Origin: Mytilus edulis
Lineage: Eukaryota
NCBI RefSeq assembly: GCF_963676685.1
Contig: NC_092346.1
Span: 102,548,001 to 102,612,000, forward strand
Direction: 5' to 3'
DNA length: 64,000 bases
Shown here: positions 24,434 through 61,711 of the stretch, in pieces
Position numbering within the stretch: position 1 is the first letter of the stretch
Layout: every line of letters starts with the position of its first letter
Notes under the pieces: generated by a model
Databases searched by the model: none
Told to the model about the DNA's origin: nothing
Seen by the model: the letters and a program-made list of their open reading frames with translations, nothing else
Made by a program: the position numbers and the translations under genes

Positions 24434-25423
24434 TGAGATTAAATATCAGATTCTAGGACTGATAAGACTGCACTGCTACTGTTTTGGATGATATACAGTT
24501 GATGGAACATGATGATGACAATTAAAACAAGTAGTCAGAAAGTCAGCAGATAATTTTTCAATTGACTTCAAACTAGAAATTAAAAGTTAATGACTTCCTG
24601 AAGAAGTTATGAGTGATAACCCAAACTGTCACCAAACATGATTGCCAGCAGTACCGAAGATAAAAAAAAATTGGAGAAAAAATAGAATGAAAAAGTTTGC
24701 TACACAAGTTTGAATAAATGATACCACTGTTATGCTTCAAGTGATTTCTATGTTTCCTTTTTTCATTGTTACATCAGACAAAGTCATTGCCCAATTGAAT
24801 TTTAAGAAATCTTTCTGCCTACTTGTGAGGAAATGACTTCTTTTTATGCCACCGTGGTAGCAGAAGGGGCATTAAGTTTTACCCTTATCCTTCCATCCTT
24901 TCCTTTGTCTGCATGTCACTCACTTTTGTTTGCCTCAAACAAATGGTATAAAACTTATACACTATGCTTATTAAAACAAAACACAGATCAAGTTAGAATT
25001 TTTGTGGTGTCACTTTTACTAGAGTTATGCCCCTGTACAGATGGAAAAATGGCTGAATTCATTTCATTCCATAATTAAAATTTGCCTCACTGAAATGATA
25101 TGAAACTTATACACAATGGTTATAACTGCAAAACTCAGATTAAGTACTTATTTTGGTAATAACTTTTCTATTTCTGAGTTATGTCCCCCTATAATGTTAT
25201 GCAAAAAGGAGGTGCATCATCTGTGTCTCATGGACACATTCCCCATTTATTTTATGCGTCATTAACATTTTTCTGTGATTAACTCGTTGATTTTAGTTCT
25301 ATTACTTATTTGCTCAGACCTAAAGGACTTTTCAGTGTGATATTTCAATACTTCAGTAACAGAGGTTGCTAATGACAAATGTATATCTTAACTGATACAT
25401 TCTAGAAATCACAGATTTATCTA

Positions 25424-28400
25424 TTAATAGTTTATTTTGAGATTTTCTTTTCCATTATCTGTTTGAGGTAGTTTCCTTCTGAGTATTTTACCACTTGGTA
25501 GTTTAGGAATTTCATCCACAATTTCCAAGCCACCTCGAAGTTTCTTATAAGGGGACACTCGTTCTACAAAAGAAACATAACATTTAATAGCATTACTTGA
25601 TATCAGCAAACAATTTTGCTGAAGATTCTGTTTTCTTTGCAAAGAACTCGGTGATACATCATTAAATTTGTTTTGAAGTACATGGAAAACAATTCAATTG
25701 TACAGTTGGAACATTCCTCTTATTTCAACTGTTTTCTCATCCTTGTGATAACATTCAAATAATTTTGTTCAAAATTTCTAACTTGCATAAGAAAATAGAG
25801 AAAGCTTTGCATTTTCTGTAATGGTTAGAAAATGTGTATTTCAATCATTAAAATATTTATCTGTAGGCAAGCTCAAAACTAGTTCCTTAGATTTTAAATA
25901 TGTAGCATTACATGTACCATTTATATATTTCTGTATTTCTGTTGCTTCAGCATGTGATTTAAGTACAACATATGCCTTTGGAACTTCACCAAAAACATCA
26001 GCTGGTACCCCAATAACTGCTGCCTCTAATATAGCTTCATGGGATAACAGTATAGACTCTAGATAGGTTGGAGATATCTGAAATGTTAATCAAAACTAAT
26101 AATCTTCACAGCTCTGGTATAATTTGTATACTGTACAGAATCAAGGATTACTATACAAATCCTTGACAGAATCTAAAGTAGATCCTCATTTTTGTTCATT
26201 TCCTTTGTTTATTGAAAAAGTAATATCTGTATCTCAATATTTTGTACTGGGGGTATTCCTTAAATTATTTTTTTCATAGGAATCTTTTCTATTTTGTAAC
26301 GGAGAAATTGATGGATAAAATAAGAAACCATCATAAATGTTACAGGCATATTCAAAACAAAATCATGATAATGTCATATGATAAAATTATTCAAACCATA
26401 ACAGTTTGCATGTCATCATAACCCCTGAACTCCAGTGTTGCTATCTGTGCTATCATGAAATAATAGAAGCAGTTTAGAAAATATAAATGTGAATTTTAAT
26501 ATATTTACAACTGCTTTAACATTTGTGTTAAGTATGGCATTTGTATATATGAATAATGCAATTTACCTGATATCCTTTGTATTTAATAATATCCTTTAAT
26601 CTGTCAACAACAAAGTAATGGCCATCGTCATCATAGTAAGCTATATCACCTGAAAAAATCTGAGACCTTGAGAATAATAAGTATGAATGAAATGTGTGAA
26701 TGTAAATAAAACAGCAACCCAACAACATTTGAAAACAACTCTAAAAGATATCTAGGTTTAAAATTCATTTCACCAAGCTCTCTTCAAAACAAAGACACTA
26801 CCAACACGGAGCCTTGGCTCACACCAAACAGAAAGCTATTAAGGGCCCCCAATATGACTAGTGTAAAACAAGGAAAATCTACACTCTAACCTATATAGAA
26901 AAAAGCAAGAAATGGAAACACTTATGAACCATATCAACCAAGACAACCACTGAACATCAGGCTCCTGACTTAGGACACGTGCACACAAATGAAGCGGGTT
27001 TAAATGTTTTAATAGGTACCAACCTTTACCCTTACCGTAAACAATAGCATAACAGTCTGATTTTGAAGTTTTTTATGACATGAATAACTTTTGTGGAAAT
27101 TTATAAAATTTGAACAGAAGCTTTTTTCTATCCAAAAGACAGTGCCCAGACCAAAGTTATTTTATTTATTTTATATTTTCTTATTTTACTGGTTATGTAA
27201 GTACTTTTTAAAATAGTAGTTGTTATCAGTTTAAATCAAGTACTGTTTATAGAGAACATAGAATAACCTGTTTTTATCCAGCCATCTTCTGTAATAGACC
27301 TCCTGGTTGCTTCTTCATTGTTTAAATATCCTTTAGTAATTTGTGGCCCACACGCCCATATTTCACCAGACTCAAATGCTTTTGTTATAGTTTCTCCATT
27401 TTCAATATCAATTAGCTAAAATAATATATAAAGATTATATCAGTCTATAACTAATTAAAATTTGTGGATGTTTGGAAATTATGGGATGATTGTCAAATTG
27501 CATATCACTAGTTCTTGATTTATCGATTGATTCCTATGATGTAGGAATATAGAAGTTAAACCTTTGAGTATTCAATTATTATAGTCATACCAAGGATTTG
27601 TATAGTAAATATACAAATCCTTGGTCATACATTGAAAAGAGTGATATGCAATTCAGACCCACTGAAGCAATGGAAACATCCATTTTGATACATTACTATA
27701 CTGAGTAAAAATTTATATAATATAATTATAAAAAGTTAAAAGATTAAAATTACACTTATCATATACATTTATCTAATACAGCTTGTTAAGTTGTTAAAAG
27801 ATCTTTATAATGTGTTCTTGCATGAGATGAGTTACCTTTGATATAGTATTGGGTACTGGCTTGCCGATAGAACCATATTTATGACATCCAACAGGATCAG
27901 TGAATATTTACCTTTGATATAGTTTTGGGTACTGGCTTGCCGATAGAACCATATTTATGACATCCAACAGGATCAGTGAATATTTACCTTTGATATGGTA
28001 TTGGGTACTGGCTTGCCGATTGAACCATATTTATAACATCCAACAGGGTCAGTGAATATTTACCTTTGATATAGTTTTGGGTACTGGCTTGCCGATTGAA
28101 CCATATTTATGACATCCAACAGGATAAGTGAGTATTTACTTTTAACAGAGACATATATTGTATTATATGTCTCTGCTTTTAATATGGTATTGGGTACTGG
28201 CTTGCCGATTGAACCATATTTATGACATCCAACAGGATCAGTGAATATTTACCTTTGATATGGTATTGGGTACTGGCTTGCCGATAGAACCATATTTATA
28301 ACACCCAACAGGGTCAGTGAATATTTACCTTTGATATAGTTTTGGGTACTGGCTTGCCGATTGAACCATATTTATGACATCCAACAGGATCAGTGAATAT

Positions 28401-31400
28401 TTACCTTTGATATAGTATTGGGTACTGGCTTGCCGATTGAACCATATTTATAACATCCAACAGGATCAGTGAATATTTACCTTTGATATGGTATTGGGTA
28501 CTTGCTTGCCGATTGAACCATATTTATAACATCCAACAGGATAAGTGAGTATTTACTTTTAATATGGTATTGGGTACTGGCTTGCCGATTGAACCATATT
28601 TATAACATCCAACAGGATCAGTGAATATTTACCTTTGATATGGTATTGGGTACTGGCTTGCCGATTGAACCATATTTATAACATCCAACAGGATCAGTGA
28701 ATATAGCGCCACTAGTTTCTGACATTCCATAGCCTGTTCAATAAATTGGTAATCACATTTTATGACATTTTACCTTATTTTAAAAACATTGATAACTGTT
28801 TCAAATACTTATTGCTTAATTTTATTTATCTGTCAGTGTGTCACATAATTCAGGATTTTTTCTCATCTTTGCGAGGCAAGGGTAACCCTTGTCTAGAGAA
28901 GATAGAGAGAAGGGAAGTGGATCGTAACCCTTGTCTAGAGAAGATAGAGAGGAGGGAAGTGGATCGTAACCCTTAGGTAGAGAAGATAGAGAGGAGGGAA
29001 GTGGATCGTAACCCTTAGGTAGCGAAGATGTGTTTGCCTTTGATGCTTGATGTATTTTCCTTCTTCTCTTTTCTTCTCCATTTTTGTCGAGCCTGCCACT
29101 TTTGTCGCAGAAAGCTCGACATAGGGATAGTGATCCGGCGGCGGCGCCTTTAGCTAACTTCTTAAAAGCTTTATATTTTAGAAGGTGGAAGACCTGAATG
29201 CCTCATACTTTGTATATGGATGCCTCATGTTACGAAGTTTCCGTCAGCCACATGTCCAATGTTCTTGACCTCATTTTCATGGTTCAGTGACTACTTGAAA
29301 AAAAGTTAAGATTTTTTTGTAATGTTAAACTCTCTCTTATTATAAGTAGTAGGATAACTATATTTGGTATGTGCATACCTTGCAAGGTCCTTATGTCGGT
29401 CAGACAGTTTTCACTTGACCTCAACCTCATTTCATGGATCAGCAAACATGGTTAAGTTTTGATGGTCAAGTCCATATCTCAGATACTATAAGCAACAGGC
29501 CTAGGTCTAGTATATTTGGTGTATGGAAGCATTGTAAGGTGTCATCTGACCTTAACCTTATTTTCATGGTTCAGTGGTTATAGTTAAGTTTTTGTGTTTT
29601 GGTCTGTTTTATAATCCTGGTACCTTTGATAACTATTTCTTATACTGTATGCAATAGGTCTACTATATTTGGTGTATGGAATGATTGTAAGGTGTACATG
29701 TCTAGCTGGCAGGTGTCATCTGACCTTGACCTCATTTTCACGGTACAGTGGTCAAAGTTAAGTTTTTTAGTTTTGGTCTTTTTTAGCTCACCTGACCTGA
29801 AAGGTCAAGTGAGCTTTTCTCATCACTTGGGGGTCCGTCCTCCGTCGTCGTCCGGCGTCACCGTCGTCTGTAAACTTTTACAAAAATCTTCTCCTCTGAA
29901 ACTACTGGGTCAAATCTAACCAAACATGGCCAAAATCATTATTAGGGTATCTAGTTTAAAACTTGTGTCCAGTGACCCGTCCAACTAACCAAGATGGCCG
30001 CCATGGCTAAAAATAGAACTTAAGGGTAAAATGCAGTTTTTTGCTTAAAACTAAAAAAACAAAGCATTTAGAGCAAATCTGACATGGTGTTAAATTGTTT
30101 ATCAAGTCAAGATCTATATGCCCTGAAATTTTCAGATGTATCGGACAACCCGTTGTTAGGTTACTGCCCCTGAATTGGTAATTTTAAAGAAATTTTGCTG
30201 TTTTTGGTTATTATCTTGAATATTATTATAGATAGAGATAAACTGTAAAACAGCAAAAATGTTCAGCAAAGTAAGATTTTCAAATAAGTCAACAGGACCA
30301 AAATGTTCAGTTGACCCCTTTAGGAGTTATTGCCCTTTATAGTAAAATTTTAACCATTTTTCGTAAATCTTAGTTATCTTTTACAAAAATCTTCTCCTCT
30401 GAAACTACTGGGCCAAATTAATCCAAACTTGGCCACAATCATCATTGGGGTATCCAGTTTAAAAATTGTGTCCGGTGACTCGGCCACCCAACCAAGATGG
30501 CCGCCATGGCTAAAAATAGAACATAGGGGTAAAATGCAGTTTTTGGCTTATAACTCAAAAACCAAAGCATTTACAGCAAATCTATCGTGAGTAAAATTGT
30601 TTGTCAAGTCAACATCTATCTATCCTGAAATTTTCAGATGAATCGGATAACCGGTTGTTAGGTTGCTGCCTTGAATTGGTAATTTTAAGGAAATTTTGCC
30701 GTTTTTTGTTATTATCTTGAATATTATTATAGATAGAGATAAACTGTAAACAGCAATAATGTACAGCAAAGTAAGACATAAAAATAAGTCAACATGACCA
30801 AAATGGTCAATTGACCCCCTAAGGAGTTATTGCCCTTTATAGTCAATTTTTAACAATTTTCATAAAATTTGTAAATTTTCGCTAACATTTTCTACTGAAA
30901 CTACTGGGCCAAGTTCATTATTGATAGAGAAAATTGTAAGCAGCAAGAATGTTTACTAAAGTATACACATCACCATCACCAAATCACAATTTTGTCATGA
31001 ATCCATCTGTGTCCTTTGTATAATATTCACATAGACCAAGGTGAGCGACACAGGCTCTTTAGAGCCTCTAGTTTCTAATACTATATGCCATAGGTCAACT
31101 ATATTTGGTGTATTTAAATATTTTATGATCTATATGTCAGTTGTGCAGGTTTTATTTGACCTTGACCTCATTTTCACAGTTCATTGATCAGTGTTAAGTT
31201 TTTGTGTTTTGGTCTGTTTTTCTAACTATAAGCAAAAGGTCAACTATATCTGTTGTTTGGGAGAATTGTTTTCTGTAAATGCCTGTCTGGCATGGTTCAT
31301 CTGACCTTGACCTCATTTTCATATTTCTAAGGTCAATGTTAAGTTTTTATGGTTAATGTTAAGTTTATGTGACAGATGTAAAAAAGCTTTATATTTAGGA

Positions 31401-34400
31401 CTATCAACATAATATCAATGATTAGTAAAGAAGGCGAGACATTTCAGTATGTGCACTCTTGTTATCTTTTGTATGAAATATATCAACATACACTTTTTTT
31501 TTAATTCTTATTACTGACTGAAAACCTTCTAACACATATGAAACTATGAAGTTGGAGTAACCTTTGCTCTAAATAATCTTGAACTCTATCTCGATTGTTA
31601 ATGGCGCTTGTGCTATTCGCATAGCAATGACTAGCATACTTTATTTACCATTCTTTACCTTGTCTTATTCCCTGTAGTTTGAGTCTATGTACCATTTGTT
31701 CAGTTAAAGTTTTACTTAAAGGGGCAGCTCCAGAGTATGGTGTATGTAAACTAGACAAGTCGTACTTGGATACCATAGGGTCTTTGGCAAAAAAGTTTAC
31801 AAGTGGTGGTGCTATTAAACTGAACGTTCCCTGAAAAGAAAAACGATTATTTCTGTTATCTTGAACATGTTCTCTTCTGGATTACAGTTTGTACAATAAA
31901 AAAATGCCATTGCATGATATAGAGCAGTTCAAAATTAAGTTTTTTTAAATTATTGTGAAAGATGAATTTTACTTTGTCCAGAATGTAAATTAGTTTTTTA
32001 AAATATAAATATTAAGGGTGGGGGTCTTTCATATTTTTTTCATATTCGAAAAGCATGATATTAAATTTAAATTGAGACTGAAAATTAGAATGTTTTAACG
32101 AGACAGCAACCCGGCCAAAGAGCAGATTACAGTCGAACACACTACCAATGGGTCATCAACACAGCGATAACTAAATCCCGCACCCGGAGTGGGGCTTCAG
32201 CTGGCTCCTAAACAAAAATGTGTTTTACTTGTTCAGTGAAAATGGACGTCATACTAAACTCAATATAAACCTACCCTAAAATTTTGAATAGCATTGAGGT
32301 AAGATTCTGCTTCAAACCTGGGTAGAACAACAGTAGCCGCTCCCTGTGACAAAGGGTTCATCATCCCTATCATAAGTCCAGCAATGTGTACCATAGGTAG
32401 ACAGGAGATTGATTTCTCTTCTCCAGACACAAATGGAATTATTGTTGGATGTCTATATTATAAAAATACGCAATTAACACTTTATATACCAGTAAAAAAA
32501 TCATTATTGCTTTATTCTTTATAAAAAAACATTTACTTTTTTCAGTTTAGTATAATTGATGAATACATGTATCATAAGTTTCTTTGCACGAGGTTGATAT
32601 TTGGATTTTGACAAATTCATGAGCTCAATCTTGATTTATATAGCATGTATACAGCTACGATACCTCATTTTAAAGATGTGCATATGGATCATCAAACTTT
32701 ACTCATCCATTGTATAATTTTTTTTCCATTTCAACTTTAAGGGTTGCATACTCCTTGGGACCTTTGAATAACGTTTCAACATATATTGAACATAAAAAGA
32801 AAAAGACTATCACCGTAATTGACAAAGTTCAGCAACTAAGTTTTTATGAGTCAGTAATACGCCTTTTGGTAACCCTGTGGTCCCACTGGAGTATGGTACC
32901 AGTGCAGTATCGGTATCAGGGTTTATGTTTACATCTGGTAATTGGTTTGCCTTTGTTTCTATGAGGTCACTAAAGTTTCGATGAAATTCTGAATAGCCTA
33001 TAACTATGATTTCCTGCAATATCATACAAATATTCAAATAAATTTTAAAGAATGTACCCTAATTATTTTTTTGTTTCATCTTGTTTTTTAAAACAAGTAA
33101 TTCAAGTTATGTTTATTAAATAGTTACTATATAGAACCAGCTTCTTAATTCCTTTCAGAATAAAAGTATGTTATGATATGAGCAAAAGGAGACGAGAAAG
33201 CAACCAAACAAAAGATACGGACCATCGTTTTATATGGTTCAAGAAAAAGGGAGATAATATTACTTTAATTGAATATTCTATTGGGTTATCTCTAATAGTT
33301 TTGTACTAAAAATTGTATACCTTTACACTCGGAACTTTGACTTTTGCATTATTCGCCTTAGTAACGCAGTCAGGTGTTGTGATAATAAATTTAGTACTAG
33401 TATCATATAGTTGTGTGGCCAGCTCATCTACAATAGTAAAAAGGACATTTGACTCACAGTTGAAATTGAGACAAATTTCAGATCTGCTTGCTAAGAATTG
33501 CACCCTGAAGACAATACTTAATCATAAATCACAATACAGCATCAACAAGAATGATTTTAATCGGATTGGAAAGATGTGATTGATATGTTCTAATCGATTT
33601 TCATAGCTAAGAAAACGATTGCTTTGGTGTTGTTTCGATTTATGTAAGATTTGCATGTCTATTCCCAATACATTAAGTAAGTTGTCTCACCAACATTAAT
33701 CAGGGCATGAAGTCACTTTATGTTCAGCATACATATAAATAGTTAAACAATATATATTTTAAATAAATATTATGATATATACATTACAAACTCACCAACC
33801 TGCAGTAAGCTGCGAGTTAGCTATTGTTAAAATGGCACCGTTGGCCGTCACACCACAAAAGACATGTGCGAACTCGGGACGATTCGTTCCATATAAACAC
33901 ACTATATCGTTCTTTTGTAAACCAATATTTTTAAATCCTGTTGCTGTAGAAACTATTTCAGACTCTAACTGATCAAAGGTTGTTTCTTGTCCAGTAATGC
34001 CATTTATCTAAAACGTAAATGAGAAGAATAAAGTGTGTTAATATGAGTGTCTTATCATACTTTGTATTGAAGCTGCCTCATCAAGATATGACTTATCAAT
34101 GTTTTATGCATGGTGACACTACGGGTGTCACATATGGAACCGGAACTGCTGACACTTCCTTTAGTTCGTCCTCTGTTAATGGTGGTGCTAGTGTTGCTCG
34201 CAATCTTTCATTTTGTATCTAATGTTTTGTTCTTAACTTTTTGTCTTTTAGTCGTTTTATTTTTGGGCATTGTGTTGTCTAGTTTTTGTCGAGCCTTCGA
34301 CTTTAGTCGAAAACGCGAGACTAAGCGATCCTACATTCCGTCGTCGTCGTCGGCGGCTGCGGCGTCCACAATGTTCACTCTGTGGTTAAAGTTGTTGAAA

Positions 34401-35110
34401 TTTTAATAACTTTCTTAAACTATACTGGATTTCTACCAAACTTGGACAGAAGCTTGATTATGATCATAAGATAGTATCCAGAAGTAAATGTTGTAAAAAA
34501 ATAAATTCATTTTTTCCATATTTTACTTTTAAATGGACTTAGTTTTTCTGCGGGGAAACATTACATTCACTCTGTGGTTAAAGTTTTAAAAATTTTAATA
34601 AATTTCTTAAACTATCCTTGGTTTGTACCAAACTTGGACAGAAGCTTAATTATGATCATAAAATAGTATCCAGAAGTAAATTTTGTAAAAATATAAATTC
34701 ATTTTTTCCGTATTTTACTTTTAAATGGACTTAGGAGATTGTATCAAGAAAAATATTGTTATTGAGTTTTTTCCTCATTTTTGTTGAGCCTGCGATTTAC
34801 AGCAAAAGTAGGCGAGACACTGGGTTCCGCGGAACCCTTACAAATTTTTTTTACATGAAATTCGATTGCTCGTAGGTATTTTTTGCCTATTCAGTAAGTA
34901 AAATGATACAAATTAGAAGATACTAGTATTACTTACAAGAGCAGTGAACTTTCTGTATTTGTGTATGTCCTTTAAAATGTATTCCGCTATAGACATGTTT
35001 GGTATGTCGACATTATATGGAGACTTATGGTACTTTTGACAATTATGACGACGTAAAATGTTGCTATAACGCCATTTCAAGAGACAACGTTTTACTATTC
35101 TTATTATCAT
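25424..35110 (-). CDS. 4-coumarate-CoA ligase-like / firefly-luciferase-like acyl-CoA synthetase (ANL superfamily), complete, 556 aa
   Basis: Exons 35110-34937, 34007-33800, 33427-33321, 33013-32814, 32452-32275, 31830-31659, 28733-28633, 27415-27268, 26649-26567, 26077-25918 and 25563-25424 total 1671 nt in frame. Motifs: [13 protein letters not shown] (AMP-binding), [67 protein letters not shown]. Confidence 0.94.
26142..26165. mobile_element. 24-bp hairpin insertion with 7-bp TSD (ACAGAAT), putative transposon footprint
   Basis: ACAGAAT|CAAGGATTACTATACAAATCCTTG|ACAGAAT. Confidence 0.75.
27591..27623. mobile_element. 33-bp hairpin insertion with 7-bp TSD (GTCATAC), putative transposon footprint
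   Basis: GTCATAC|CAAGGATTTGTATAGTAAATATACAAATCCTTG|GTCATAC; same termini as 26142-26165. Confidence 0.8.
27832..28705 (-). repeat. 76-bp tandem array made of the 3' part of 4CL-like exon 7 plus its GTAA donor, ~11-12 copies
   Basis: Minus-strand unit ATATTCACTGATCCTGTTGGATGTTATAAATATGGTTCAATCGGCAAGCCAGTACCCAATACCATATCAAAG|GTAA encodes [30 protein letters not shown] at 27911 and 27987 gives the 76-bp period. Confidence 0.95.
28146..28175. mobile_element. 30-bp hairpin insertion with 7-bp TSD (CTTTTAA) inside one 76-bp unit
   Basis: CTTTTAA|CAGAGACATATATTGTATTATATGTCTCTG|CTTTTAA. The sister unit at ~28545-28570 shows the empty site with a single CTTTTAA. Confidence 0.85.
28883..29027. repeat. 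42-bp tandem repeat, ~3.5 copies
   Basis: TAACCCTT...GAGAAGATAGAGAG.AGGGAAGTGGATCG at 28883, 28925, 28967 and 29009. Confidence 0.9.
29081..31463 (+). mobile_element. Helentron-associated non-autonomous element (HINE/DINE-like), outer element, interrupted by a nested copy
   Basis: T-run, then TGTCGAGCCT...AAGCTCGACA short inverted repeat, (CGG)n microsatellite, internal TGACCTTGACCTCATTTTCA repeats, and a 3' AGGCGAGACA subterminal motif ending in CTTGTT. Confidence 0.65.
29781..31073 (+). mobile_element. Nested HINE/DINE-like element with ~500-bp internal tandem duplication
   Basis: TTTTTAGCTCACCTG...CAAGTGAGCT 5' inverted repeat, (CGT)n/CCGT microsatellite, internal repeat starting ~29877 and ~30380, 3' CAAGGTGAGCGA plus hairpin AGGCTCT.TAGAGCCT, inserted in a T run. 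Confidence 0.75.
34283..34850 (+). mobile_element. HINE/DINE-like element in 4CL-like intron 1
   Basis: TTTTTGTCGAGCCT start, (CGT)n(CGG)n, two ~194-bp core repeats (CACTCTGTGGTTAAAGTT at ~34376 and ~34568), 3' AGGCGAGACA plus palindrome GGGTTCCGCGGAACCC, T-rich end. Confidence 0.75.
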
Positions 35111-38052: not shown

Positions 38053-41000
38053 TCATCGCAAAATATTATAAATTGTCATTATAAATCCTATCAAACTAAA
38101 AGTAGATTTCACTGATTGCTGTCCATTGCATCCGTAGTCAAAACAACTCCAGTAAGTTGCACCATAAACATCTATTTCTTCTTCGGGTTTGAATCCATCG
38201 GTATAGTAACAGCTTCGGATAATCATTGCCCCTGAAAAAGTACAAATAAAAAATCTTCATTGCTAATTTAAAAAAAACTGTAACAAAGTTGAATCATGAT
38301 AAAAGATTTAAAAATCCGTAATAATGACGTTATTTTTACCGGTCTTCAATTGGTTTCTATAATATTATTTGTAAACAATGTAATATGCAATGCAAGTGTA
38401 GAACCTCTGGTCTACGGTCCGTTTGGTTGGGGTTTTTTTTCATTTTGTTTCATTTATAAGTCTCGGAGTTTAGTGTGGTGTCCACTTTCGCTGAACCAGT
38501 ATACTTTCTTGTTTAGGGACCAGTTGAGCCTTCGGTTCGTGATTTTCTCACTGTTTTGAAGTTTCATTGGTGGCCTTGGCCTGTTTTCTGTCACTAGTAA
38601 TCAAATATCATTTGTTCTCTGCCATCTTAATTACGTTATCTGAATTATTTTGTGGATGCTGAATCATTATATTGATTGGCAGTCATTGTTTCTGTGGTAA
38701 CAATTAAATGCAATTTGGCTTATTTCATTAATACTAGTGAGGAATTAAATGAGGAAGGTTTAGCTATGTCTCAAACATTGATTATTCTTCTGACATTGTA
38801 ACTGCTCGGCATACGACCCCATCCTGTTTCTTAAACTATTTTTTTGGTTTATTTTTCTGTGTTTTACTTTTGCTTTTTATATGTCTTACCTTTATACGGT
38901 TGAACCTTGTTAACCTCTTTTCTACAGGAAACAGTCATACTTTCGTCCGACATATTGCAAGGTTTCAGGAATTTGTTGTCTTTTCCTCCAAATTCATCTG
39001 CACACAATGGCTGCATATCTGATCGACATTCATGGCAACTAAACTCATCTAAGAGAAAATATCATCAAATGTTATGAGCACAAATAAATGATAATGGTGT
39101 TTGTAGTTATTATAATATATATTGTCAAGCAATGATAATGGTGTTTGTAGTTATTATAATATCTATTATCAAGCAACAAAAAAGTGTAAACCAAGATTTA
39201 GCAAAAAAATATAATTATGGTGTTTGTTACTGGTCAGATTGTCTTAGTGTTTATCGGGGGGTATTTCTTTTGTGTTTCAAGTACATGTCTTTCTGTTATG
39301 GGTGGATGTTAGATCATGTCAAGCTATATTCCTCATTTCCATGCAAGGGCCGACATTGTCCATGGACACAACGGAGCATGAGACATGGTTATCATTTGTT
39401 CATATATGCACCTTCAAACAACAGGCTATGAATGAAAACACGATGGTGAATATTTCTATAGATTGCAATGCCAATTTAATAGTAAAAGATATACAAAATC
39501 AATTGATCAAATTGTGTTTCTATTTGATGCTGATTAATCATAAAATTGATGGTGTTTCAAATAACGAATGGAATGACTAAACGTATGACATTGGGGATTT
39601 GTTGATTGTTTATATAACAGCATTTCACATACGGCGTTGTTCTAGTATCTGCACAATACTCAATACTATTGATATATCTATATCATATTGGAATAATGTT
39701 TGTAGGCTTATACCGGTGAAACAGGTATATTTATCTATTAGTCTTTTGTGATATTCAAGTTAAGGAAATAGTAAAGAATCTGAAACCTTTGCTGAAGGTC
39801 ACTATATATATGGTGCTCTTTCTTTTAGAGTGAGCTAAAATCACTGTCATAACCCACAGACAAGTTTGACCACATAATCCGTATAAAGATGTTTTATTTT
39901 AAACATATATTCAATTTTGTCGCGAATCAGCAAACACCTACCGTCGATAATATTCTATAATTGCTCACATCCACTTCATTTGAACTTTAGTGGATAGTCT
40001 TACTGGCAATCGTACCACATCCCTTAATTTTTATTTATCAAAATATTGCATTTTTTGTTATAAAAACAAAAAAAAAGATCAGGACAGGGTATTAAAATAT
40101 GGCCATTCTGGATGTCTTCCCCCTGGAATAAATGTCATATGCTAAGCAGATGTTCACCGTATGTTGGCTACTCCGCTCAGTTGTAATGGGGACTTTAACT
40201 CCGACGCCTCGTGGTAACCTCTAAAACAACTATTTGATAGGTCCATAGGTAGCTTAAATTATTGCACGGAACAATATCTGACCTATCCAATATACACTCA
40301 GTTTACATTGGTCTTCTAAAACGTTCTATCCAGGTCAACTTACTTTTTGGTTAATTATGTCATTTTCCTAGTCCTGTGTGTTTGAAATATTTGCCACTGG
40401 TCGTTAAACAAATATATACGGTGTGACATATATTCTATGGTTCATAAATTTCGATTTAGAAGTGTACAATTTAGAAGTGTTTGATGTGAAGTATATATGC
40501 TGTCAACATGAAGTTTCGTCAGTTTTTGTAAAATGAGATTTACTGTGGAAGTTCCAAGTTAAAATATATATATGTGGAATTCACATGTTTAATTATCGTT
40601 TAAATGATGCCGATTTTAGTGTGGTTCTGGGAAACTACATTAGATTTACTCGTAACTAGTAATAACTAGAGTAATACATAGACAGACATTAAGTAGGAGT
40701 ATCATACCCAGGATCAAATCAATTCAGATCAGATTTGAAATCCAGTAATATATATTCTATAAGCTTTAAACCGCTAAGAATTATAAACATGATTAAAACC
40801 TTATGTCAAAAATATTTTACATTTATACATATCATATGTTACCATGCAAGACTTATTATTTTTCTTTCCCTTATTGCGTTTTATAGCTGTTTACTACATC
40901 GTGTGTGTATCATATAAAACTATAACTTAATTGTATTTGACCTTCATTGTTTTGTTTCAATCGATCTCAAAGACATAAAAGCAAAGACAATTTATCCATA

Positions 41001-41110: not shown

Positions 41111-42899
41111 TATTTTTTACTGTGCATGCGATAATGTACGTGCGCACATAACAATTCAAAGGGGCTCTTGTGGGAGAATAATAATAACTTTCAATAAGTT
41201 GTATGAAGATTGTATCCTTGTCACGTCCTTATGTTATAATGAACTCCACAGGTGTCAAATGAAAAGACATACATTTGACTTAGAATTCTGTCGTTAAAAG
41301 AACGCATTTACCAGTAAATATCGATGTAATATAATTCCTTGATTTCTAAAACAGTCGTTTTATGTATAGATATTGGAAATTATGCTATTAACAATTATAT
41401 GGAGATTACACTATCCGTTAAGAACAAGCAATGTAATATAGAGCGAGTGGCATCATGTGTATGGATTTTTGTAAATTAGATTTCCGACATGCAGACAAGT
41501 TAATGTCAGCTGCAATAGAAACTGCAATTTTCTCAGTCAGTTAGTATATCAACTATAACAATGTTTAAAACGGATAGGAGAAAATTTGTAAGAATATCAA
41601 GTGCGAACAGTATTAGTCTTATCCATGTTTACCTCATTTATATGCTCTGAACAAATAGAACTAATTCCTTTGTGCCAAGAACAAAATTTTGGCACATATT
41701 TTGATATTTTATTGTCTTTGTTGGTGCATAAACATATATACAATTTATATCTTATCGTATGTTTTTCTATGTTGTGATGTTACACTATTGTTTCAGAAAA
41801 AGGGAGAAGGTTTGGTACCATTAAAACGTTTAATCCCGATGTAAATGTTTTCACCTGTCCTAAGTCAGGAATCTTATGTACAGTAGTTGTCGTTTGTTTA
41901 TGTAATTTATACGCGCTTCTCGTTTCTCGTTTTATATATATATAAGACCGATGTTTTTTCCCGTTTGAATGGTTTTACACTTGTTATTTTAGGACCCTTT
42001 AAAGCTTGTTGTTCAGTGTGAGCCAAGGCTCCGTGTTGAAGGCCATACATTGACCTATAATGGTTTACTTTTATAAATTGTAATTTGGATGGAGAGTTGT
42101 CTCATTATCACTCACATCACATCTTCCTATATCTACATATGTCTTTGGATGGTAAAAAGTTTCGTAATTTAGTACTTCAACACGCAGGATTTAAAACTAT
42201 GTATATAAATCAAAACATGATGGTGTCTTCTTATAAACACATGTCCGATACAAAACCATCTGAAAGCAAGCTATGGTGGGTTCGTGAAAATGAGGTCAAT
42301 GACAATAGATATATGACAAATGGAAACTTCAGATAATAGATCACCTGCATACTTTATACGAAGCATCCAGTCTTGTAGTTTCTGACATATTTATCTTTAT
42401 ACACATATGTTCCAGTCATGGCCACTAGGGTAGCATATTACCTATGTGTCCCATTCTAAGATCGTCATGAAAAATGTATGAAATACTTTCCACTGGGCAT
42501 TAAGCAACGACAATCACATTTTAAGACATTTGTTGCAGTCAAAACAAAAGCCCAATTAAATCTAATGTTTCACCTGATTCAAATTTTATGGTTTCACTTG
42601 CTACATGATTACCAGTAAATTGAATACTTCAGACTTGTGTCATAGTGATCTTAAGAGGACTTCTAAATACCTTTAATTTTTTTAAACCAAACTAAGACGT
42701 AGAAAGATAACATCATCAGTAAGAAAAAGTGGATATTTACAGGCTTTTATCAGTACAGTATCACTAATTAAGAAATGCACCTAAATGCAAAACTTAACAA
42801 AAGTCAATCAAATATGGGCTTTATGAATTCTGCCTTGTAAAATACAGGAGTCCTGTATGTTGTGCATATGAAAAAAGATTCATGACAAAGGAACCTTGG

Positions 42900-45800
42900 C
42901 AAATACTAAGATAGACATGAAACAGCACCAATACCTACAGGTTTAAATATATCTTCAAACAACAAGGCAAACACCAAGATGAACACAAACCAACTCCACT
43001 ACCTACAGGTTTAAACAGATTTCCAAACAAGGCAAACACCAAGATGGGCATGAAACAACACCACACCTACAGGTTTAAATAGATTTCCAAACAAGGCAAA
43101 CACCAAGATGGACATGAAACAACACCACACCTACAGGTTTAAATAGATCTCCAAAAACAACCAGGCAAACACCAAGATGGACATGAAACAACACCACTAC
43201 CTACAGGTTTAAATAGATCTCCAAACAACAAGGCAAACACCAAGATGGACATGAAACAACACCACTACCTACAGGTTTAAATAGATCTTCAAACAACAAG
43301 GCAAACACCAAGATGGGCATGAAACAACACCACACCTACAGGTTTAAATAGATCTTCAAACAACAAGGCAAACACCAAGATGGACATGAAACAACACCAC
43401 ACCTACAGGTTTAAACATATACTCAAACAACAAGGCAAACACCAAGATGGACATGAAACAACACCACACCTACAGGTTTAAACATATCTTCAAACAACAA
43501 GGCAAACACCAAGATGAACACAAACCAACTCCACTACCTACAGGTTTAAATAGATTTCCAAACAAGGCAAACACCAAGATGGACATGAAACAACACCACA
43601 CCTACAGGTTTAAATAGATCTCCAAAAACAACAAGGCAAACACCAAGATGGACATGAAACAACACCACTACCTACAGGTTTAAATAGATCTTCAAACAAC
43701 AAGGCAAACACCAATATGGACATGAAACAACACCACACCTACAGGTTTAAACATATCTCCAAACAGCAAGGCAAACACCAAGATGGGCATGAAACAACAT
43801 CACACCTACAGGTTTAAATAGATCTTCAAACAACAAGGCAAACACCAAGATGGGCATGAAACAACACCACACCTACAGGTTTAAACATATCTTCAAACAA
43901 CAAGGCAAACACCAAGATGGACATGAAACAACACCACACCTACAGGTTTAAACATATCTTCAAACAACAAGGCAAACACCAAGATGGGCATGAAACAACA
44001 CCACACCTACAGGTTTAAATAGATCTCCAAAAACAACAAGGCAAACACCAAGATGGACATGAAACAACACCACACCTACAGGTTTAAATAGATCTCCAAA
44101 AACAACAAGGCAAACACCAAGATGGACATGAAACAACACCACTACCTACAGGTTTAAATAGATCTTCAAACAACAAGGCAAACACCAATATGGACATGAA
44201 ACAACACCACACCTACAGGTTTAAACATATCTCCAAACAGCAAGGCAAACACCAAGATGGACATGAAACAACACCACTACCTACAGGTTTAAATAGATCT
44301 TCAAACAACAAGGCAAACACCAATATGGACATGAAACAACACCACACCTACAGGTTTAAACATATCTCCAAACAGCAAGGCAAACACCAAGATGGGCATG
44401 AAACAACATCACACCTACAGGTTTAAATAGATCTTCAAACAACAAGGCAAACACCAAGATGGGCATGAAACAACACCACACCTACAGGTTTAAATAGATC
44501 TTCAAACAACAAGGCAAACACCAAGATGGACATGAAACAACACCACACCTACAGGTTTAAACATATCTTCAAACAACAAGGCAAACACCAAGATGGGCAT
44601 GAAACAACACCACACCTACAGGTTTAAATAGATCTCCAAAAACAACAAGGCAAACACCAAGATGGACATGAAACAACACCACACCTACAGGTTTAAATAG
44701 ATCTTCAAACAACAAGGCAAACACCAAGATGGACATGAAACAACACCACACCTACAGGTTTAAATAGATCTCCAAACAACAAGGCAAACACCAAGATGGA
44801 CATGAAACAACACCACTACCTACAGGTTTAAATAGATCTTCAAACAACAAGGCAAACACCAATATGGACATGAAACAACACCACACCTACAGGTTTAAAC
44901 ATATCTCCAAACAGCAAGGCAAACACCAAGATGGGCATGAAACAACACCACACCTACAGGTTTAAATAGATCTCCAAAAACAACAAGGCAAACACCAAGA
45001 TGGACATGAAACAACACCACACCTACAGGTTTAAATAGATCTTCAAACAAGAAGGCAAACACCAAGATGGACATGAAACAACACCACTACCTACAGGTTT
45101 AAACATATCTTCAAACAACAAGGCAAACACCAAGATGGACATGAAACAACACCACACCTACAGGTTTAAATAGATCTTCAAACAACAAGGCAAACACCAA
45201 GATGGGCATGAAACAACACCACACCTACAGGTTTAAATAGATCTTCAAACAACAAGGCAAACACCAAGATGGGCATGAAACAACACCACACCTACAGGTT
45301 TAAATAGATCTTCAAACAACAAGGCAAACACCAAGATGGACATGAAACAACACCACACCTACAGGTTTAAATAGATCTTCAAACAACAAGGCAAACACCA
45401 AGATGGACATGAAACAACACCACACCTACAGGTTTAAATAGATCTCCAAAAACAACAAGGCAAACACCAAGATGGACATGAAACAACACCACACCTACAG
45501 GTTTAAATAGATCTTCAAACAACAAGGCAAACACCAAGATGGACATGAAACAACACCACACCTACAGGTTTAAACATATCTTCAAACAACAAGGCAAACA
45601 CCAAGATGGACATGAAACAACACCACACCTACAGGTTTAAACATATCTTCAAACAGCAAGGCAAACACCAAGATGGGCATGAAACAACACCACACCTACA
45701 GGTTTAAACATATCTTCAAACAACAAGGCAAACACCAAGATGGACATGAAACAACACCACACCTACAGGTTTAAATAGATCTTCAAACAACAAGGCAAAC

Positions 45801-48800
45801 ACCAAGATGGGCATGAAACAACACCACACCTACAGGTTTAAACATATCTTCAAACAACAAGGCAAACACCAAGATGGACATGAAACAACACCACACCTAC
45901 AGGTTTAAATAGATCTTCAAACAACAAGGCAAACACCAAGATGGACATGAAACAACACCACACCTACAGGTTTAAACATATCTTCAAACAGCAAGGGAAA
46001 CACCAAGATGGGCATGAAACAACACCACACCTACAGGTTTAAATATATCTTCAAACAACAAGGCAAACACCAAGATGGACATGAAACAACACCACACCTA
46101 CAGGTTTAAATAGATCTCCAAAAACAACAAGGCAAACACCAAGATGGACATGAAACAACACCACACCTACAGGTTTAAATAGATCTTCAAACAACAAGGC
46201 AAACACCAAGATGGACATGAAACAACACCACACCTACAGGTTTAAACATATCTTCAAACAACAAGGCAAACACCAAGATGGACATGAAACAACACCACAC
46301 CTACAGGTTTAAACATATCTTCAAACAGCAAGGCAAACACCAAGATGGGCATGAAACAACACCACACCTACAGGTTTAAATAGATCTTCAAACAACAAGG
46401 CAAACACCAAGATGGGCATGAAACAACACCACACCTACAGGTTTAAACATATCTTCAAACAACAAGGCAAACACCAAGATGGACATGAAACAACACCACA
46501 CCTACAGGTTTAAACATATCTTCAAACAACAAGGCAAACACCAAGATGGACATGAAACAACACCACACCTACAGGTTTAAACATATCTTCAAACAGCAAG
46601 GGAAACACCAAGATGGACATGAAACAACACCACACCTACAGGTTTAAATAGATCTTCAAACAACAAGGCAAACACCAAGATGGGCATGAAACAACACCAC
46701 ACCTACAGGTTTAAATAGATCTTCAAACAACAAGGCAAACACCAAGATGGACATGAAACAACACCACACCTACAGGTTTAAATAGATCTCCAAAAACAAC
46801 AAGGCAAACACCAAGATGGACATGAAACAACACCACACCTACAGGTTTAAATAGATCTTCAAACAACAAGGCAAACACCAAGATGGACATGAAACAACAC
46901 CACACCTACAGGTTTAAATAGATCTTCAAACAACAAGGCAAACACCAAGATGGACATGAAACAACACCACACCTACAGGTTTAAATAGATCTTCAAACAA
47001 CAAGGCAAACACCAAGATGGACATGAAACAACACCACACCTACAGGTTTAAATAGATCTTCAAACAACAAGGCAAACACCAAGATGGACATGAAACAACA
47101 CCACACCTACAGGTTTAAATAGATCTCCAAAAACAACAAGGCAAACACCAAGATGGACATGAAACAACACCACACCTACAGGTTTAAATAGATCTTCAAA
47201 CAACAAGGCAAACACCAAGATGGACATGAAACAACACCACACCTACAGGTTTAAATAGATCTCCAAAAAACAACAAGGCAAACACCAAGATGGACATGAA
47301 ACAACACCACACCTACAGGTTTAAATAGATCTTCAAACAACAAGGCAAACACCAAGATGGACATGAAACAACACCACACCTACAGGTTTAAATAGATCTT
47401 CAAACAACAAGGCAAACACCAAGATGGGCATGAAACAACACCACTACCTACAGGTTTAAATAGATCTTCAAACAACAAGGCAAACACCAAGATGGACATG
47501 AAACAACACCACACCTACAGGTTTAAATAGATCTTCAAACAACAAGGCAAACACCAAGATGGGCATGAAACAACACCACACCTACAGGTTTAAACATATC
47601 TTCAAACAACAAGGCAAACACCAAGATGGACATGAAACAACACCACACCTACAGGTTTAAATAGATCTTCAAACAACAAGGCAAACACCAAGATGGACAT
47701 GAAACAACACCACACCTACAGGTTTAAACATATCTTCAAACAGCAAGGGAAACACCAAGATGGGCATGAAACAACACCACACCTACAGGTTTAAATATAT
47801 CTTCAAACAACAAGGCAAACACCAAGATGGACATGAAACAACACCACACCTACAGGTTTAAATAGATCTCCAAAAACAACAAGGCAAACACCAAGATGGA
47901 CATGAAACAACACCACACCTACAGGTTTAAATAGATCTTCAAACAACAAGGCAAACACCAAGATGGACATGAAACAACACCACACCTACAGGTTTAAACA
48001 TATCTTCAAACAACAAGGCAAACACCAAGATGGACATGAAACAACACCACACCTACAGGTTTAAACATATCTTCAAACAGCAAGGCAAACACCAAGATGG
48101 GCATGAAACAACACCACACCTACAGGTTTAAATAGATCTTCAAACAACAAGGCAAACACCAAGATGGGCATGAAACAACACCACACCTACAGGTTTAAAC
48201 ATATCTTCAAACAACAAGGCAAACACCAAGATGGACATGAAACAACACCACACCTACAGGTTTAAACATATCTTCAAACAACAAGGCAAACACCAAGATG
48301 GACATGAAACAACACCACACCTACAGGTTTAAACATATCTTCAAACAGCAAGGGAAACACCAAGATGGGCATGAAACAACACCACACCTACAGGTTTAAA
48401 TAGATCTTCAAACAACAAGGCAAACACCAAGATGGACATGAAACAACACCACACCTACAGGTTTAAATAGATCTCCAAAAACAACAAGGCAAACACCAAG
48501 ATGGACATGAAACAACACCACACCTACAGGTTTAAATAGATCTTCAAACAACAAGGCAAACACCAAGATGGACATGAAACAACACCACACCTACAGGTTT
48601 AAATAGATCTTCAAACAACAAGGCAAACACCAAGATGGACATGAAACAACACCACACCTACAGGTTTAAATAGATCTTCAAACAACAAGGCAAACACCAA
48701 GATGGACATGAAACAACACCACACCTACAGGTTTAAATAGATCTTCAAACAACAAGGCAAACACCAAGATGGGCATGAAACAACACCACTACCTACAGGT

Positions 48801-49605
48801 TTAAATAGATCTTCAAACAACAAGGCAAACACCAAGATGGACATGAAACAACACCACACCTACAGGTTTAAATAGATCTTCAAACAACAAGGCAAACACC
48901 AAGATGGACATGAAACAACACCACACCTACAGGTTTAAACATATCTTCAAACAACAAGGCAAACACCAAGATGGACATGAAACAACACCACACCTACAGG
49001 TTTAAATAGATCTCCAAAAACAACAAGGCAAACACCAAGATGGACATGAAACAACACCACACCTACAGGTTTAAATAGATCTCCAAAAACAACAAGGCAA
49101 ACACCAAGATGGACATGAAACAACACCACACCTACAGGTTTAAATAGATCTCCAAAAACAACAAGGCAAACACCAAGATGGACATGAAACAACACCACAC
49201 CTACAGATTTAAACATATCTTCAAACAACAAGGCAAACACCAAGATGGGCATGAAACAACACCACACCTACAGGTTTAAACATATCTCCAAACAGCAAGG
49301 GAAACACCAAGATGGGCATGAAACAACACCACACCTACAGGTTTAAATAGATCTTCAAACAACAAGGCAAACACCAAGATGGGCACGAAACAACACCACA
49401 CCTACAGGTTTAAATAGATCTCCAAAAACAACAAGGCAAACACCAAGATGGACATGAAACAACACCACACCTACAGGTTTAAACATATCTTCAAACAACA
49501 AGGCAAACACCAAGATGGACATGAAACAACACCACACCTACAGGTTTAAACATATCTTCAAACAGCAAGGCATGCACCAAGCAAGGCATGCACCAAGATG
49601 GACAT
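42900..49605. repeat. 67-bp (65-70) satellite, ~99 copies, strongly strand-asymmetric (CA-rich on +)
   Basis: Unit AAACAACAAGGCAAACACCAAGATGGACATGAAACAACACCACACCTACAGGTTTAAATAGATCTTC, with no unique spacers. Confidence 0.98.
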
Positions 49606-58300: not shown

Positions 58301-58957
58301 CTGTTTGTGCTGAAATATTACAATGCTTTTTAACTTTTATAACATTGAATGAATGTAGAACTGTCCAATAAGCTGGACTCATATCTCCTGCATCAAGGGT
58401 TGAAGTTGGAGTATGCCAGTGAATGAAACCGTGAATCAATGAAGTTGAGAAACAAAACTAGGGCATTATTTTTTTTTGGGTCTGCATCCATTCATAAGTA
58501 ATATTCCTTCTGTTCGTATGTTTGTCCGGCTTCAGATTAAAGTTTTTGGTCAAGGTAGTTTTTGATGAAAGTCCAATCAATTTGAAACTTTGTACACGTA
58601 GTCACTATAAGATCTTCTGATTTTAATATCTCAAATTCCAGTTTTTACCACAATTTCACGGTCCACTGAACATAGCAAATAGTACTTGTTGGGCATCTGT
58701 GTACTATGGACACATTCTTGTTTCTTATGATTTATTTAATTTACCTCGGTTTGTCTCTATAACCATAAAATACAATTTAACAATCTGTTAAAATCTGTCA
58801 TATTTACCTCTTGAAATACAAACTTTACCATCCCCATCATATCCAGTATTACATACACATCTATATCTATTCACTCTACTATCCACAACACATTGGGCAT
58901 TAATATCACAGTCATTGTACATGTTACAGCCCTCAGGTTCACAACGATACCCATCAC
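52370..58957 (-). CDS. NID: Nidogen/entactin, C-terminal part (EGF repeats, G3 YWTD beta-propeller, terminal EGF); 5' exons outside the window
   Basis: Exons 58957-58808, 57747-57619, 56278-56156, 55742-55632, 55026-54904, 54611-54440, 54115-53958, 53581-53458, 53041-52920 and 52509-52370 are in phase. Motifs: [63 protein letters not shown]...QLCWGDAG...ECI, YPFGL, LYGITAV...CP...[25 protein letters not shown], then a stop with no TM segment. Confidence 0.92.
56753..57519. mobile_element. MITE with TA TSD (Tc1/mariner-type non-autonomous)
   Basis: TA|CTGTAAACAGGGAAATTTTCGCG ... CGCGAAAATTTCCCGGTTTACAG|TA, with subterminal CGCGAA repeats. Confidence 0.85.
58014..58183. mobile_element. Short GC-rich MITE, TIR CAGTGGCGGAT
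   Basis: ATA|CAGTGGCGGATCCAG ... CTGCATCCGCCACTG|ATA. Confidence 0.85.
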
Positions 58958-61711
58958 CTGAAATATCAAACAGCAATTATACATGTTACAACCCTCAGGT
59001 TCACAACGACACCAATCACCTGAAATATCAAACAGTAATTATACATGTTACAACCCTCAGGTTCACAACGATACCCATCACCTGAAATATCAAACAGTAA
59101 TTATACATGTTACAACCCTCAGGTTCACAACGATACCCATCACCTGAAATATCAAACAGTAATTATACATGTTACAACCCTCAGGTTCACAACGATACCC
59201 ATCACCTGAAATATCAAACAGTAATTATACATGTTACAACCCTCAGGTTCACAACGATACCCATCACCTGAAATATCAAACAGTAATTATACATGTTACA
59301 ACCCTCAGGTTCACAACGATACCCATCACCTGAAATATCAAACAGCAATTATACATGTTACAACCCTCAGGTTCACAACGACACCCATCACCTGAAATAT
59401 CAAACAGTAATTATACATGTTACAACCCTCAGGTTCACAACGATACCCATCACCTGAAATATCAAACAGTAATTATACATGTTACAACCCTCAGGTTCAC
59501 AACGATACCCATCACCTGAAATATCAAACAGTAATTATACATGTTACAACCCTCAGGTTCACAACGATACCCATCACCTGAAATATCAAACAGTAATTAT
59601 ACATGTTACAACCCTCAGGTTCACAACGATACCCATCACCTGAAATATCAAACAGTAATTATACATGTTACAACCCTCAGGTTCACAACGATACCCATCA
59701 CCTGAAATATCAAACAGCAATTATACATGTTACAACCCTCAGGTTCACAACGATACCCATCACCTGAAATATCAAACAGCAATTATACATGTTACAACCC
59801 TCAGGTTCACAACGATACCCATCACCTGAAATATCAAACAGTAATTATACATGTTACAACCCTCAGGTTCACAACGATACCCATCACCTGAAATATCAAA
59901 CAGTAATTATACATGTTACAACCCTCAGGTTCACAACGATATCCATCACCTGAAATATCAAACAGTAATTATACATGTTACAACCCTCAGGTTCAAAACG
60001 ACACCCATCACCTGAAATATCAAACAGTAATTATACATGTTACAACCCTCAGGTTCAAAACGATACCCATCACCTGAAATATTAAACAGTAATTATACAT
60101 GTTACAACCCTCAGGTTCACAACGATACCCATCACCTGAAATATCAAACAGTAATTATACATGTTACAACCCTCAGGTTCACAACGATACCCATCACCTG
60201 AAATATCAAACAGTAATTATACATGTTACAACCCTCAGGTTCACAACGATACCCATCACCTGAAATATCAAACAGTAATTATACATGTTACAACCCTCAG
60301 GTTCAAAACGATACCCATCACCTGAAATATCAAACAGTAATTATACATGTTACAACCCTCAGGTTCACAACGATACCCATCACCTGAAATATTAAACAGT
60401 AATTATACATGTTACAACCCTCAGGTTCACAACGATACCCATCACCTGAAATATCAAACAGTAATTATACATGTTACAACCCTCAGGTTCACAACGATAC
60501 CCATCACCTGAAATATCAAACAGTAATTATACATGTTACAACCCTCAGGTTCAAAACGACACCCATCACCTGAAATATCAAACAGTAATTATACATGTTA
60601 CAACCCTCAGGTTCACAACGATACCCATCACCTGAAATATCAAACAGTAATTATACATGTTACAACCCTCAGGTTCACAACGATACCCATCACCTGAAAT
60701 ATCAAACAGTAATTATACATGTTACAACCCTCAGGTTCACAACGATACCCATCACCTGAAATATCAAACAGTAATTATACATGTTACAACCCTCAGGTTC
60801 ACAACGACACCCATCACCTGAAATATCAAACAGTAATTATACATGTTACAACCCTCAGGTTCAAAACGATACCCATCACCTGAAATATCAAACAGTAATT
60901 ATACATGTTACAACCCTTAGGTTCACAACGATACCCATCACCTGAAATATCAAACAGTAATTATACATGTTACAACCCTCAGGTTCACAACGACACCAAT
61001 CACCTGAAATATCAAACAGTAATTATACATGTTACAACCCTCAGGTTCACAACGATACCCATCACCTGAAATATTAAACAGTAATTATACATGTTACAAC
61101 CCTCAGGTTCACAACGATACCCATCACCTGAAATATCAAACAGTAATTATACATGTTACAACCCTCAGGTTCACAACGATACCCATCACCTGAAATATCA
61201 AACAGTAATTATACATGTTACAACCCTCAGGTTCAAAACGACACCCATCACCTGAAATATCAAACAGTAATTATACATGTTACAACCCTCAGGTTCACAA
61301 CGATACCCATCACCTGAAATATCAAACAGTAATTATACATGTTACAACCCTCAGGTTCACAACGATACCCATCACCTGAAATATCAAACAGTAATTATAC
61401 ATGTTACAACCCTCAGGTTCAAAACGACACCCATCACCTGAAATATCAAACAGTAATTATACATGTTACAACCCTCAGGTTCACAACGATACCCATCACC
61501 TGAAATATCAAACAGTAATTATACATGTTACAACCCTCAGGTTCAAAACGATACCCATCACCTGAAATATCAAACAGTAATTATACATGTTACAACCCTC
61601 AGGTTCAAAACGACACCCATCACCTGAAATATCAAACAGTAATTATACATGTTACAACCCTCAGGTTCAAAACGACACCCATCACCTGAAATATTAAACA
61701 GTCATTGTATA
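58918..61711 (-). repeat. 62-bp tandem array made of a nidogen 3' splice site plus exon start, ~45 copies
   Basis: Minus-strand unit GTATAATTACTGTTTGATATTTCAG|GTGATGGGTATCGTTGTGAACCTGAGGGTTGTAACAT is 25 nt of intron end plus the first 37 nt of the exon ([13 protein letters not shown]). Confidence 0.97.

Follow-up and report, generated by a model that had tools for sequence, protein, structure and literature searches.

How is the correct 5' splice site chosen when the end of an exon, complete with its splice donor, is repeated many times over at the start of the following intron? The question is raised by a locus in a 64,000-nucleotide stretch of Mytilus edulis DNA (NCBI RefSeq assembly GCF_963676685.1, contig NC_092346.1, positions 102,548,001 to 102,612,000 of the forward strand). 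This whole stretch is called the window below, and positions are given in its numbering. Here a gene for a 4-coumarate--CoA ligase (4CL)/luciferase-like AMP-binding protein carries copies of the end of its exon 7, each followed by a potential donor. We regard the array as very probably a minisatellite that lies across an exon-intron boundary of an intact gene, in which the first donor is used; the additional copies are probably subject to drift. The elements required for the argument are as follows (a slash within a motif marks the splice cut).

25421..35110, minus strand: host gene, 4CL/luciferase-like AMP-binding, with 11 coding exons, a 556-amino-acid open frame, and AMP-binding and AMP-binding_C domains
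28633..28733, minus strand: exon 7 (101 nt) of the gene model; its 72-nt 3' end is the exonic part of copy 1 and occurs once in orthologous proteins
28629..28704, minus strand: repeat copy 1 with the donor in use, AAG/GTAAAT, and the intron from 28632 (sequence, and RNA contigs of runs X15 and X16)
28614..28632, minus strand: start of intron 7, with the read-through GTA AAT ATT CAC TGA and a stop at codon 385
27908..28628, minus strand: intronic copies 2-10, with donor-like sites at 28556, 28480, 28404, 28328, 28252, 28139, 28063, 27987 and 27911
27832..27907, minus strand: terminal copy 11 with donor AAG/GTAACT (27835), followed by unique intron; by parsimony the presumed original intron start
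27416..27831, minus strand: unique 3' portion of intron 7 (420 nt when measured from 27835; the entire intron is now 1217 nt)
27268..27415, minus strand: exon 8 of the gene model, with the acceptor at 27415 (RNA joints 27415/27836 and 26647/27266)

Anatomy of the array

The array occupies positions 27832-28704 on the minus strand and contains 11 head-to-tail copies of a 76-bp unit, of which one is exonic and ten are intronic. An earlier note on this DNA had put the number at about 12, counting about a dozen donors; both counts come down to 11, the exon's own and ten more. The other anatomical details of that note agree with our unit alignment and gene model, namely that the array follows exon 7, in the same exon numbering, and that the unit is composed of the final 72 nt (24 codons) of the exon plus GTAA. 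The donor types that it listed were also recovered, with AAG/GTAAAT in eight copies, AAA/GTAAAT in two (copies 2 and 7), and AAG/GTAACT in the outermost one (copy 11, G at 27835). Copy 7 is longer than the others (113 bp) due to a 37-bp insertion, on which the earlier note is silent. The unit borders are sharp, as the flank before copy 1 is immediately unlike the unit end and the flank after copy 11 is unlike the unit start.

Tandem Repeats Finder (TRF) assigned scores of 956 and 554 to the array, with 94% matches. A comparison of the exon-7 sequence with the 1.37-Gb genome gave 11 matches, every one inside the array, and no second copy of exon 7 was found elsewhere in the genome at the DNA level. 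The high scores, together with the uniqueness of the exon-7 match, argue that the array is not due to chance. A second small array is present in intron 6 (28882-29016, 42 bp x 3.2, 150 nt upstream of exon 7), for which no splice-site role was seen.

The gene around the array is intact. All its introns are of the GT-AG type, the frame of 556 codons is open when donor 1 is used, and 3 of the 4 exons scanned match the Pfam domains AMP-binding or AMP-binding_C. The deduced protein is identical over 518/518 residues to 'probable 4-coumarate--CoA ligase 1', a RefSeq model labelled Mytilus edulis, and shares 93.8-98.8% identity with eight other Mytilus records. The name 4-coumarate--CoA ligase is the annotators' label for a predicted enzyme. 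The end of exon 7 is present once in all nine Mytilus proteins compared, and its boundary is confirmed both by these orthologous proteins and by RNA contigs. At the other end of the gene, exon 1 (34937-35110, minus strand) encodes a basic, acid-free N-terminal stretch of ~30 residues that gives the impression, from its sequence, of a mitochondrial targeting sequence; the public model P0007 begins 38 residues later than this exon-1 start.

Donor use in RNA

RNA evidence was obtained from 4 of the 24 available runs (X15, X16, X18, and X23), which were compared with positions 26500-27930, a region comprising exons 9 and 8, the unique part of the intron, copy 11, and 23 nt of copy 10. In X15, a contig of 1751 nt (depth 17.4) joins exon 9, exon 8, and 72 nt of a single copy, and its match ends at 27907. 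A contig of 1439 nt (depth 11.3) from X16, a run with another organism label, has the same composition and the same end point. Since an mRNA made from a later donor would continue into the preceding copy, the end of the match at 27907 identifies donor 1. The remaining 1127 nt of the X15 contig are consistent with 29 nt from exon 7 plus 1039 nt from exons 1-6 and a further 59 nt. This contig has three differences from copy 11, the same count as copy 1, and the two that are listed are copy-1 letters. At the synonymous site 27869, the expressed exon of X16 shares its letter with copy 11, and thus at least one array variant is also found in a functional exon of a relative.

The contigs of X15 and X16 show that the gene is expressed, with donor 1 assembled in both; in the steady-state RNA of these two runs it is the most upstream donor that is used. 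The earlier note would have been contradicted by transcripts that skip the exon or by a silent gene. The contrary was seen, with spliced contigs that hold one copy. Its proposal to count the junctions from each donor copy to 27415 is answered in part: the first donor is found in the contigs of X15 and X16, the sequence in X18 admits several origins, and X23 has no exon coverage.

These last two runs, and the nature of contigs as evidence, weigh against the use of donor 1 with inert later copies. In X18, a 75-nt contig (27846-27920) crosses a copy junction at a depth of 8.3, above the depth of 4.1 for exon 8, and in its letters it agrees with copy 2 or 4 and the junction preceding that copy. 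The same run has no listed joint at 27415, and its exon-8 contig ends, by arithmetic, just before the variable site 27845. Moreover, contigs drop rare forms, and decay would hide such forms. In X23, which consists of small-RNA raw reads, three reads were placed, none of them on exons, hence this run gives no raw-read junction counts for the gene. The depth over the unique intron in X18 is zero outside dispersed repeats. The X18 contig could derive from low-level unspliced or genomic sequence of an array with ten copies, from two alleles, or from a degree of leaky splicing at later donors in that run, and contigs cannot discriminate between these origins.

Predicted fate of transcripts from later donors

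All ten later donors retain the read-through GTA AAT ATT CAC TGA, and the first stop falls at codon 385 of 556, which bears out the claim that every distal donor produces a premature stop. Depending on the donor, the stop lies 61-782 nt ahead of the new junction. Under the general rule of nonsense-mediated decay, later-donor transcripts with such stops would be decay targets. We propose, by analogy with the human F7 gene (described below), that exon definition or 5'-to-3' scanning favours the most upstream donor, and that any transcripts leaking to later donors would carry a stop at least 61 nt ahead of the junction and be removed by nonsense-mediated decay. The statement that the gene survives only through selection of the proximal donor thus holds as far as the first donor is used in two runs. 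Exclusive dependence on donor choice goes further than this observation, because decay of stop-bearing transcripts would yield the same steady-state RNA.

Two other ways of avoiding the later donors were rejected. Skipping of exon 7 shifts the frame and leads to a stop at codon 349, so it offers no escape route. RNA folding does not appear to shield the later donors either, since a segment spanning exon 7 to copy 2 is no more stably folded than shuffled sequences (z 0.58).

As each copy keeps an open frame of 24 codons, the copies might alternatively serve as extra coding pieces (tandem exons), or the array might be a nascent intron produced by duplication of an AG/GT proto-splice site; an intron-gain model of the latter kind is discussed for amphioxus mirages, at least in the part of PMC3087553 considered here. 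On paper, 11 two-step routes via internal AG sites are stop-free and would add 8-12 residues in frame. However, ten of them depend on AAG acceptors that lack a pyrimidine tract, and the last one on a CAG at an insertion scar in copy 7. The copies lack an acceptor at the unit start, and no stop-free route leads from the exon-6 donor into the array, so tandem mutually exclusive exons were rejected. The segment also occurs only once in the nine Mytilus proteins, and the RNA contigs show one copy. We consider extra coding pieces or a nascent intron very improbable.

A different explanation starts from the quality of the later donors. Scored against the consensus pattern for U1, 8 of the 10 later donors match at seven of nine positions. 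Being nearly identical to donor 1 and all leading to a stop, the later donors could be used with a frequency that depends on array length or allele, with destruction of the stop-bearing transcripts tuning the level of the enzyme, a mode of control described for the ABCA7 repeat and, in part, for CBS and 6-16. The junction-spanning sequence in X18 is in line with such dose control, as are the use of the second or third site in human 6-16 and CBS, reported in the relevant part of PMC1557585, and the retention of one unit in the ABCA7 repeat, reported likewise in PMC5954066. In contrast, X15 and X16 assemble unbroken via one copy, with zero array pieces past 27907. The copies drift, and one donor has been struck by an insertion. 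A slight leak would not by itself point to regulation. Dose control therefore seems unlikely to us. We are equally doubtful of its population form, in which the array would be a length-variable bank of decoy donors with an allele-dependent leak into nonsense-mediated decay, setting enzyme dose in mussel populations and leaving the X18 contig as its trace. If it is true that the leak scales with array length, the array would constitute a simple cis-regulatory polymorphism.

Origin and turnover of the copies

Returning to a boundary minisatellite with drifting copies, we considered how it may have formed. If the array grew from one unit, AAG/GTAACTCATC is plausibly the original exon end and intron start, because the sharp unit borders make GTAACTCATC the most parsimonious ancestral state. 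An intron starting with GTAAATATTC in outgroups without the array would contradict this assignment. An exact 21-nt scan of metagenome contigs for orthologous intron DNA gave no matches. Amino-acid changes that are lacking in the exon and in the orthologues occur in 7 of the 10 intronic copies, including the terminal one; as the terminal copy has such changes, only its flank, and not its exon part, is a candidate for the ancestral state. The proteins are colinear across the exon 7/8 joint, and the unique 416-nt part of the intron and the acceptor lie outside the array, which points to an intron 7 that is older than the array.

The presumed old donor and the new one differ within the 9-mer at +5 only (C to A). 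Positions -3 to +4 are inherited, the cut position is unchanged, and both donors match the U1 consensus at 7 of 9 positions, an ordinary value for this gene, whose ten introns range from 4 to 8 of 9. The description of the donor in use as a duplication-created junction is overstated, as the cut site has not moved and the U1 match is equal. We suggest that a single tandem duplication with sharp borders copied the exon end plus GTAA; the intron sequence that originally lay downstream would then have ended up after the final copy, and the working donor would have been altered only from +5 onward.

Variation among the copies is confined to 11 of the 76 columns, nine of which vary in at least two copies (mean pairwise difference of 5.2%). 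This agrees with the earlier statement that the copies have drifted mainly at a few recurring positions. In the four-gamete test, 13 of the 55 column pairs are incompatible, and a block of four variants that extends across the unit border recurs at junctions 2/3 and 7/8. Such a patchwork of variants is the expected result of unequal exchange or conversion, by which the copies would have expanded and mixed after the first duplication.

The patchwork also bears on whether the array is real. Short tandem arrays are sometimes mis-sized in assemblies, and the copies might on this general ground be an assembly artefact. We find this hardly credible, given the structured variation at 11 columns, the genuine insertion with a target duplication in one copy, and the copy-junction contig of the independent run X18, whose letters fit particular copies.

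The insertion in copy 7

The insertion in copy 7 affects its donor and contains the following element.

28146..28175, no strand assigned: 30-bp hairpin with 12-bp inverted ends and a 7-bp target-site duplication, at the copy-7 donor; likely P-type excision scar

The hairpin pattern was found at 1,055 places genome-wide, as compared with none for a reversed control. Its family consists of hairpins of 24-48 bp that have the same 12-bp ends and variable centres. Among 16 loci examined for the target duplication, 11 have an exact 7-bp duplication and 13 have one with at most one mismatch, whereas an 8-bp duplication was found at none.

The copy-7 hairpin is likely a scar left by excision of a P-type transposon. 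P elements are excised by cuts placed 17 nt inside their ends, after which end joining may reseal the donor site, according to the parts of PMC7776569 and PMC10983969 used here; a staggered cut repaired in this way would leave scars of this kind. Like P-element footprints, the insert consists of short pieces of both inverted ends between the target-site duplication. It differs from them in having a 7-bp duplication, compared with the 8 bp described in the same sources for P elements of fly and zebrafish. A very small mobile element is a less favoured interpretation of the hairpin. No partner end was present within 1.5 kb at 11 of 30 scar loci. At three loci extended to 10 kb in search of a parent element, there was no matching end with a duplication, and no transposase was found, the open reading frames there not having been compared with Pfam. 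The scars, at 1,055 places, suggest a DNA transposon that duplicates 7 bp and was once very active.

The scar is present in 1 of the 11 copies and is missing from the sister copy 2, which has the same variant block. It should thus be later than most of the expansion. We rejected the transposon as the seed of the array on the same grounds; a P-type element would have inserted at the copy-7 donor at a later stage, leaving only the scar.

Comparison with known boundary arrays

The arrangement and the use of the first donor are already known from human F7 and other genes, and from amphioxus. Minisatellites whose first unit lies across an exon-intron boundary are described for human F7, CBS, 6-16, LMNB2, and PDGF in the portion of PMC1557585 consulted. 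Amphioxus mirages are minisatellite-like duplications at both 5' and 3' boundaries, with units of 10-160 bp and normal splicing, as stated in the corresponding portion of PMC3087553. The mussel array belongs to this class, of the F7-type variable number tandem repeat (VNTR) or mirage, in both its anatomy and its splicing: it has head-to-tail minisatellite units, a first unit that spans a real boundary, mRNA from the authentic donor (in 2 of 4 runs), and mosaic turnover.

The closest counterpart is the 37-bp VNTR in intron 7 of human F7 (PMC1557585; Borensztajn et al. 2006), which shares the boundary-spanning first unit, the reiterated intronic donors, and the use of only the most upstream one. 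The two differ in composition, with 4 exonic and 33 intronic bases in 5-9 copies in F7, in contrast to 72 exonic and 4 intronic bases in 11 copies in the mussel. They also differ in that two pseudo-sites of F7 are stop-free, whereas every later donor in the mussel hits a stop. For F7, the part of the source at hand reports polymorphism and scanning as shown; the mussel array is known from one assembly and RNA contigs. In the LMNB2 (100 bp) and PDGF (81 bp) minisatellites, only the authentic site is used, as in the mussel (PMC1557585, in the same part). Reiterated donors are likewise present in CBS intron 13 and 6-16 (G1P3) intron 2, and in the ABCA7 intron 18 VNTR; however, one or two downstream sites are used in these three, in contrast to the donor-1 contigs of the mussel (relevant parts of PMC1557585 and PMC5954066).

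The mirages of amphioxus, found in Adh3 and in the globin genes BflGb6 and BflGb9, resemble the mussel array as tandem duplications at exon boundaries of a marine invertebrate that leave splicing undisturbed. Length variation and somatic instability are reported for them in the part of PMC3087553 seen, whereas the mussel array belongs to a mollusc and bears a transposon-type scar. A literature search for such arrays in Mytilus or bivalves found none, which is weak evidence of absence, and a search on mirages turned up no additional paper. The finding matters little alone; it adds a mollusc to the mammals and amphioxus in which the first of a series of reiterated 5' splice sites is chosen. The copy-specific letters, in turn, make the array a natural reporter of which 5' splice site is selected and of transcript decay.

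Splice-site arrays in the genome and other features of the window

We surveyed 80 evenly placed 10-kb stretches of the genome (800 kb) for arrays using TRF (period 25-250, at least three copies, at least 80% matches). The survey yielded 50 arrays, or ~1 per 16 kb. Donor-like motifs were present in 6 of the 50, compared with 7.1 expected from shuffles and 5.8 from random genomic pieces, and acceptor-like motifs in 15, compared with 17.8 and 16.7, respectively. A genome-wide excess of splice-site arrays was thus rejected for these 50 arrays, in a crude test of low power that used general consensus motifs without gene annotation and included transposon-derived arrays. At this density, arrays may overlap exon borders by chance often enough to account for the recurrence of boundary arrays, once selection has retained the cases with an intact working site, within the low power of this test.

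Three further loci with splice-site-like units were noted. At 58908-61715 (minus strand), ~45 copies of a 62-bp unit contain the acceptor TTTCAG/G together with the beginning of an EGF-domain exon. The final copy continues into the real exon at 58957-58808 (Pfam EGF_3, E 2.7e-7), which makes this array the acceptor-side counterpart of the one in the ligase gene. At 42898-49581, ~99 copies of a 67-bp unit contain CTGTAG/GT on the minus strand. Elsewhere in the genome (L050:2073-3411, G000:C9), three adjoining arrays with periods of 38, 43, and 56 have units with the donor-like CTG/GTGAGTA on the minus strand, and may represent a donor array.

Upstream of the ligase gene, at ~38100-39050 on the minus strand, there are exons of a small Quiver/Ly-6-like gene. 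This assignment derives from a Pfam QVR match of the orthologue P0015 (E 2.2e-5, below the cut-off). The public models P0005, P0010, and P0013 fuse the Quiver/Ly-6-like gene to the ligase, which is probably a gene-prediction error.

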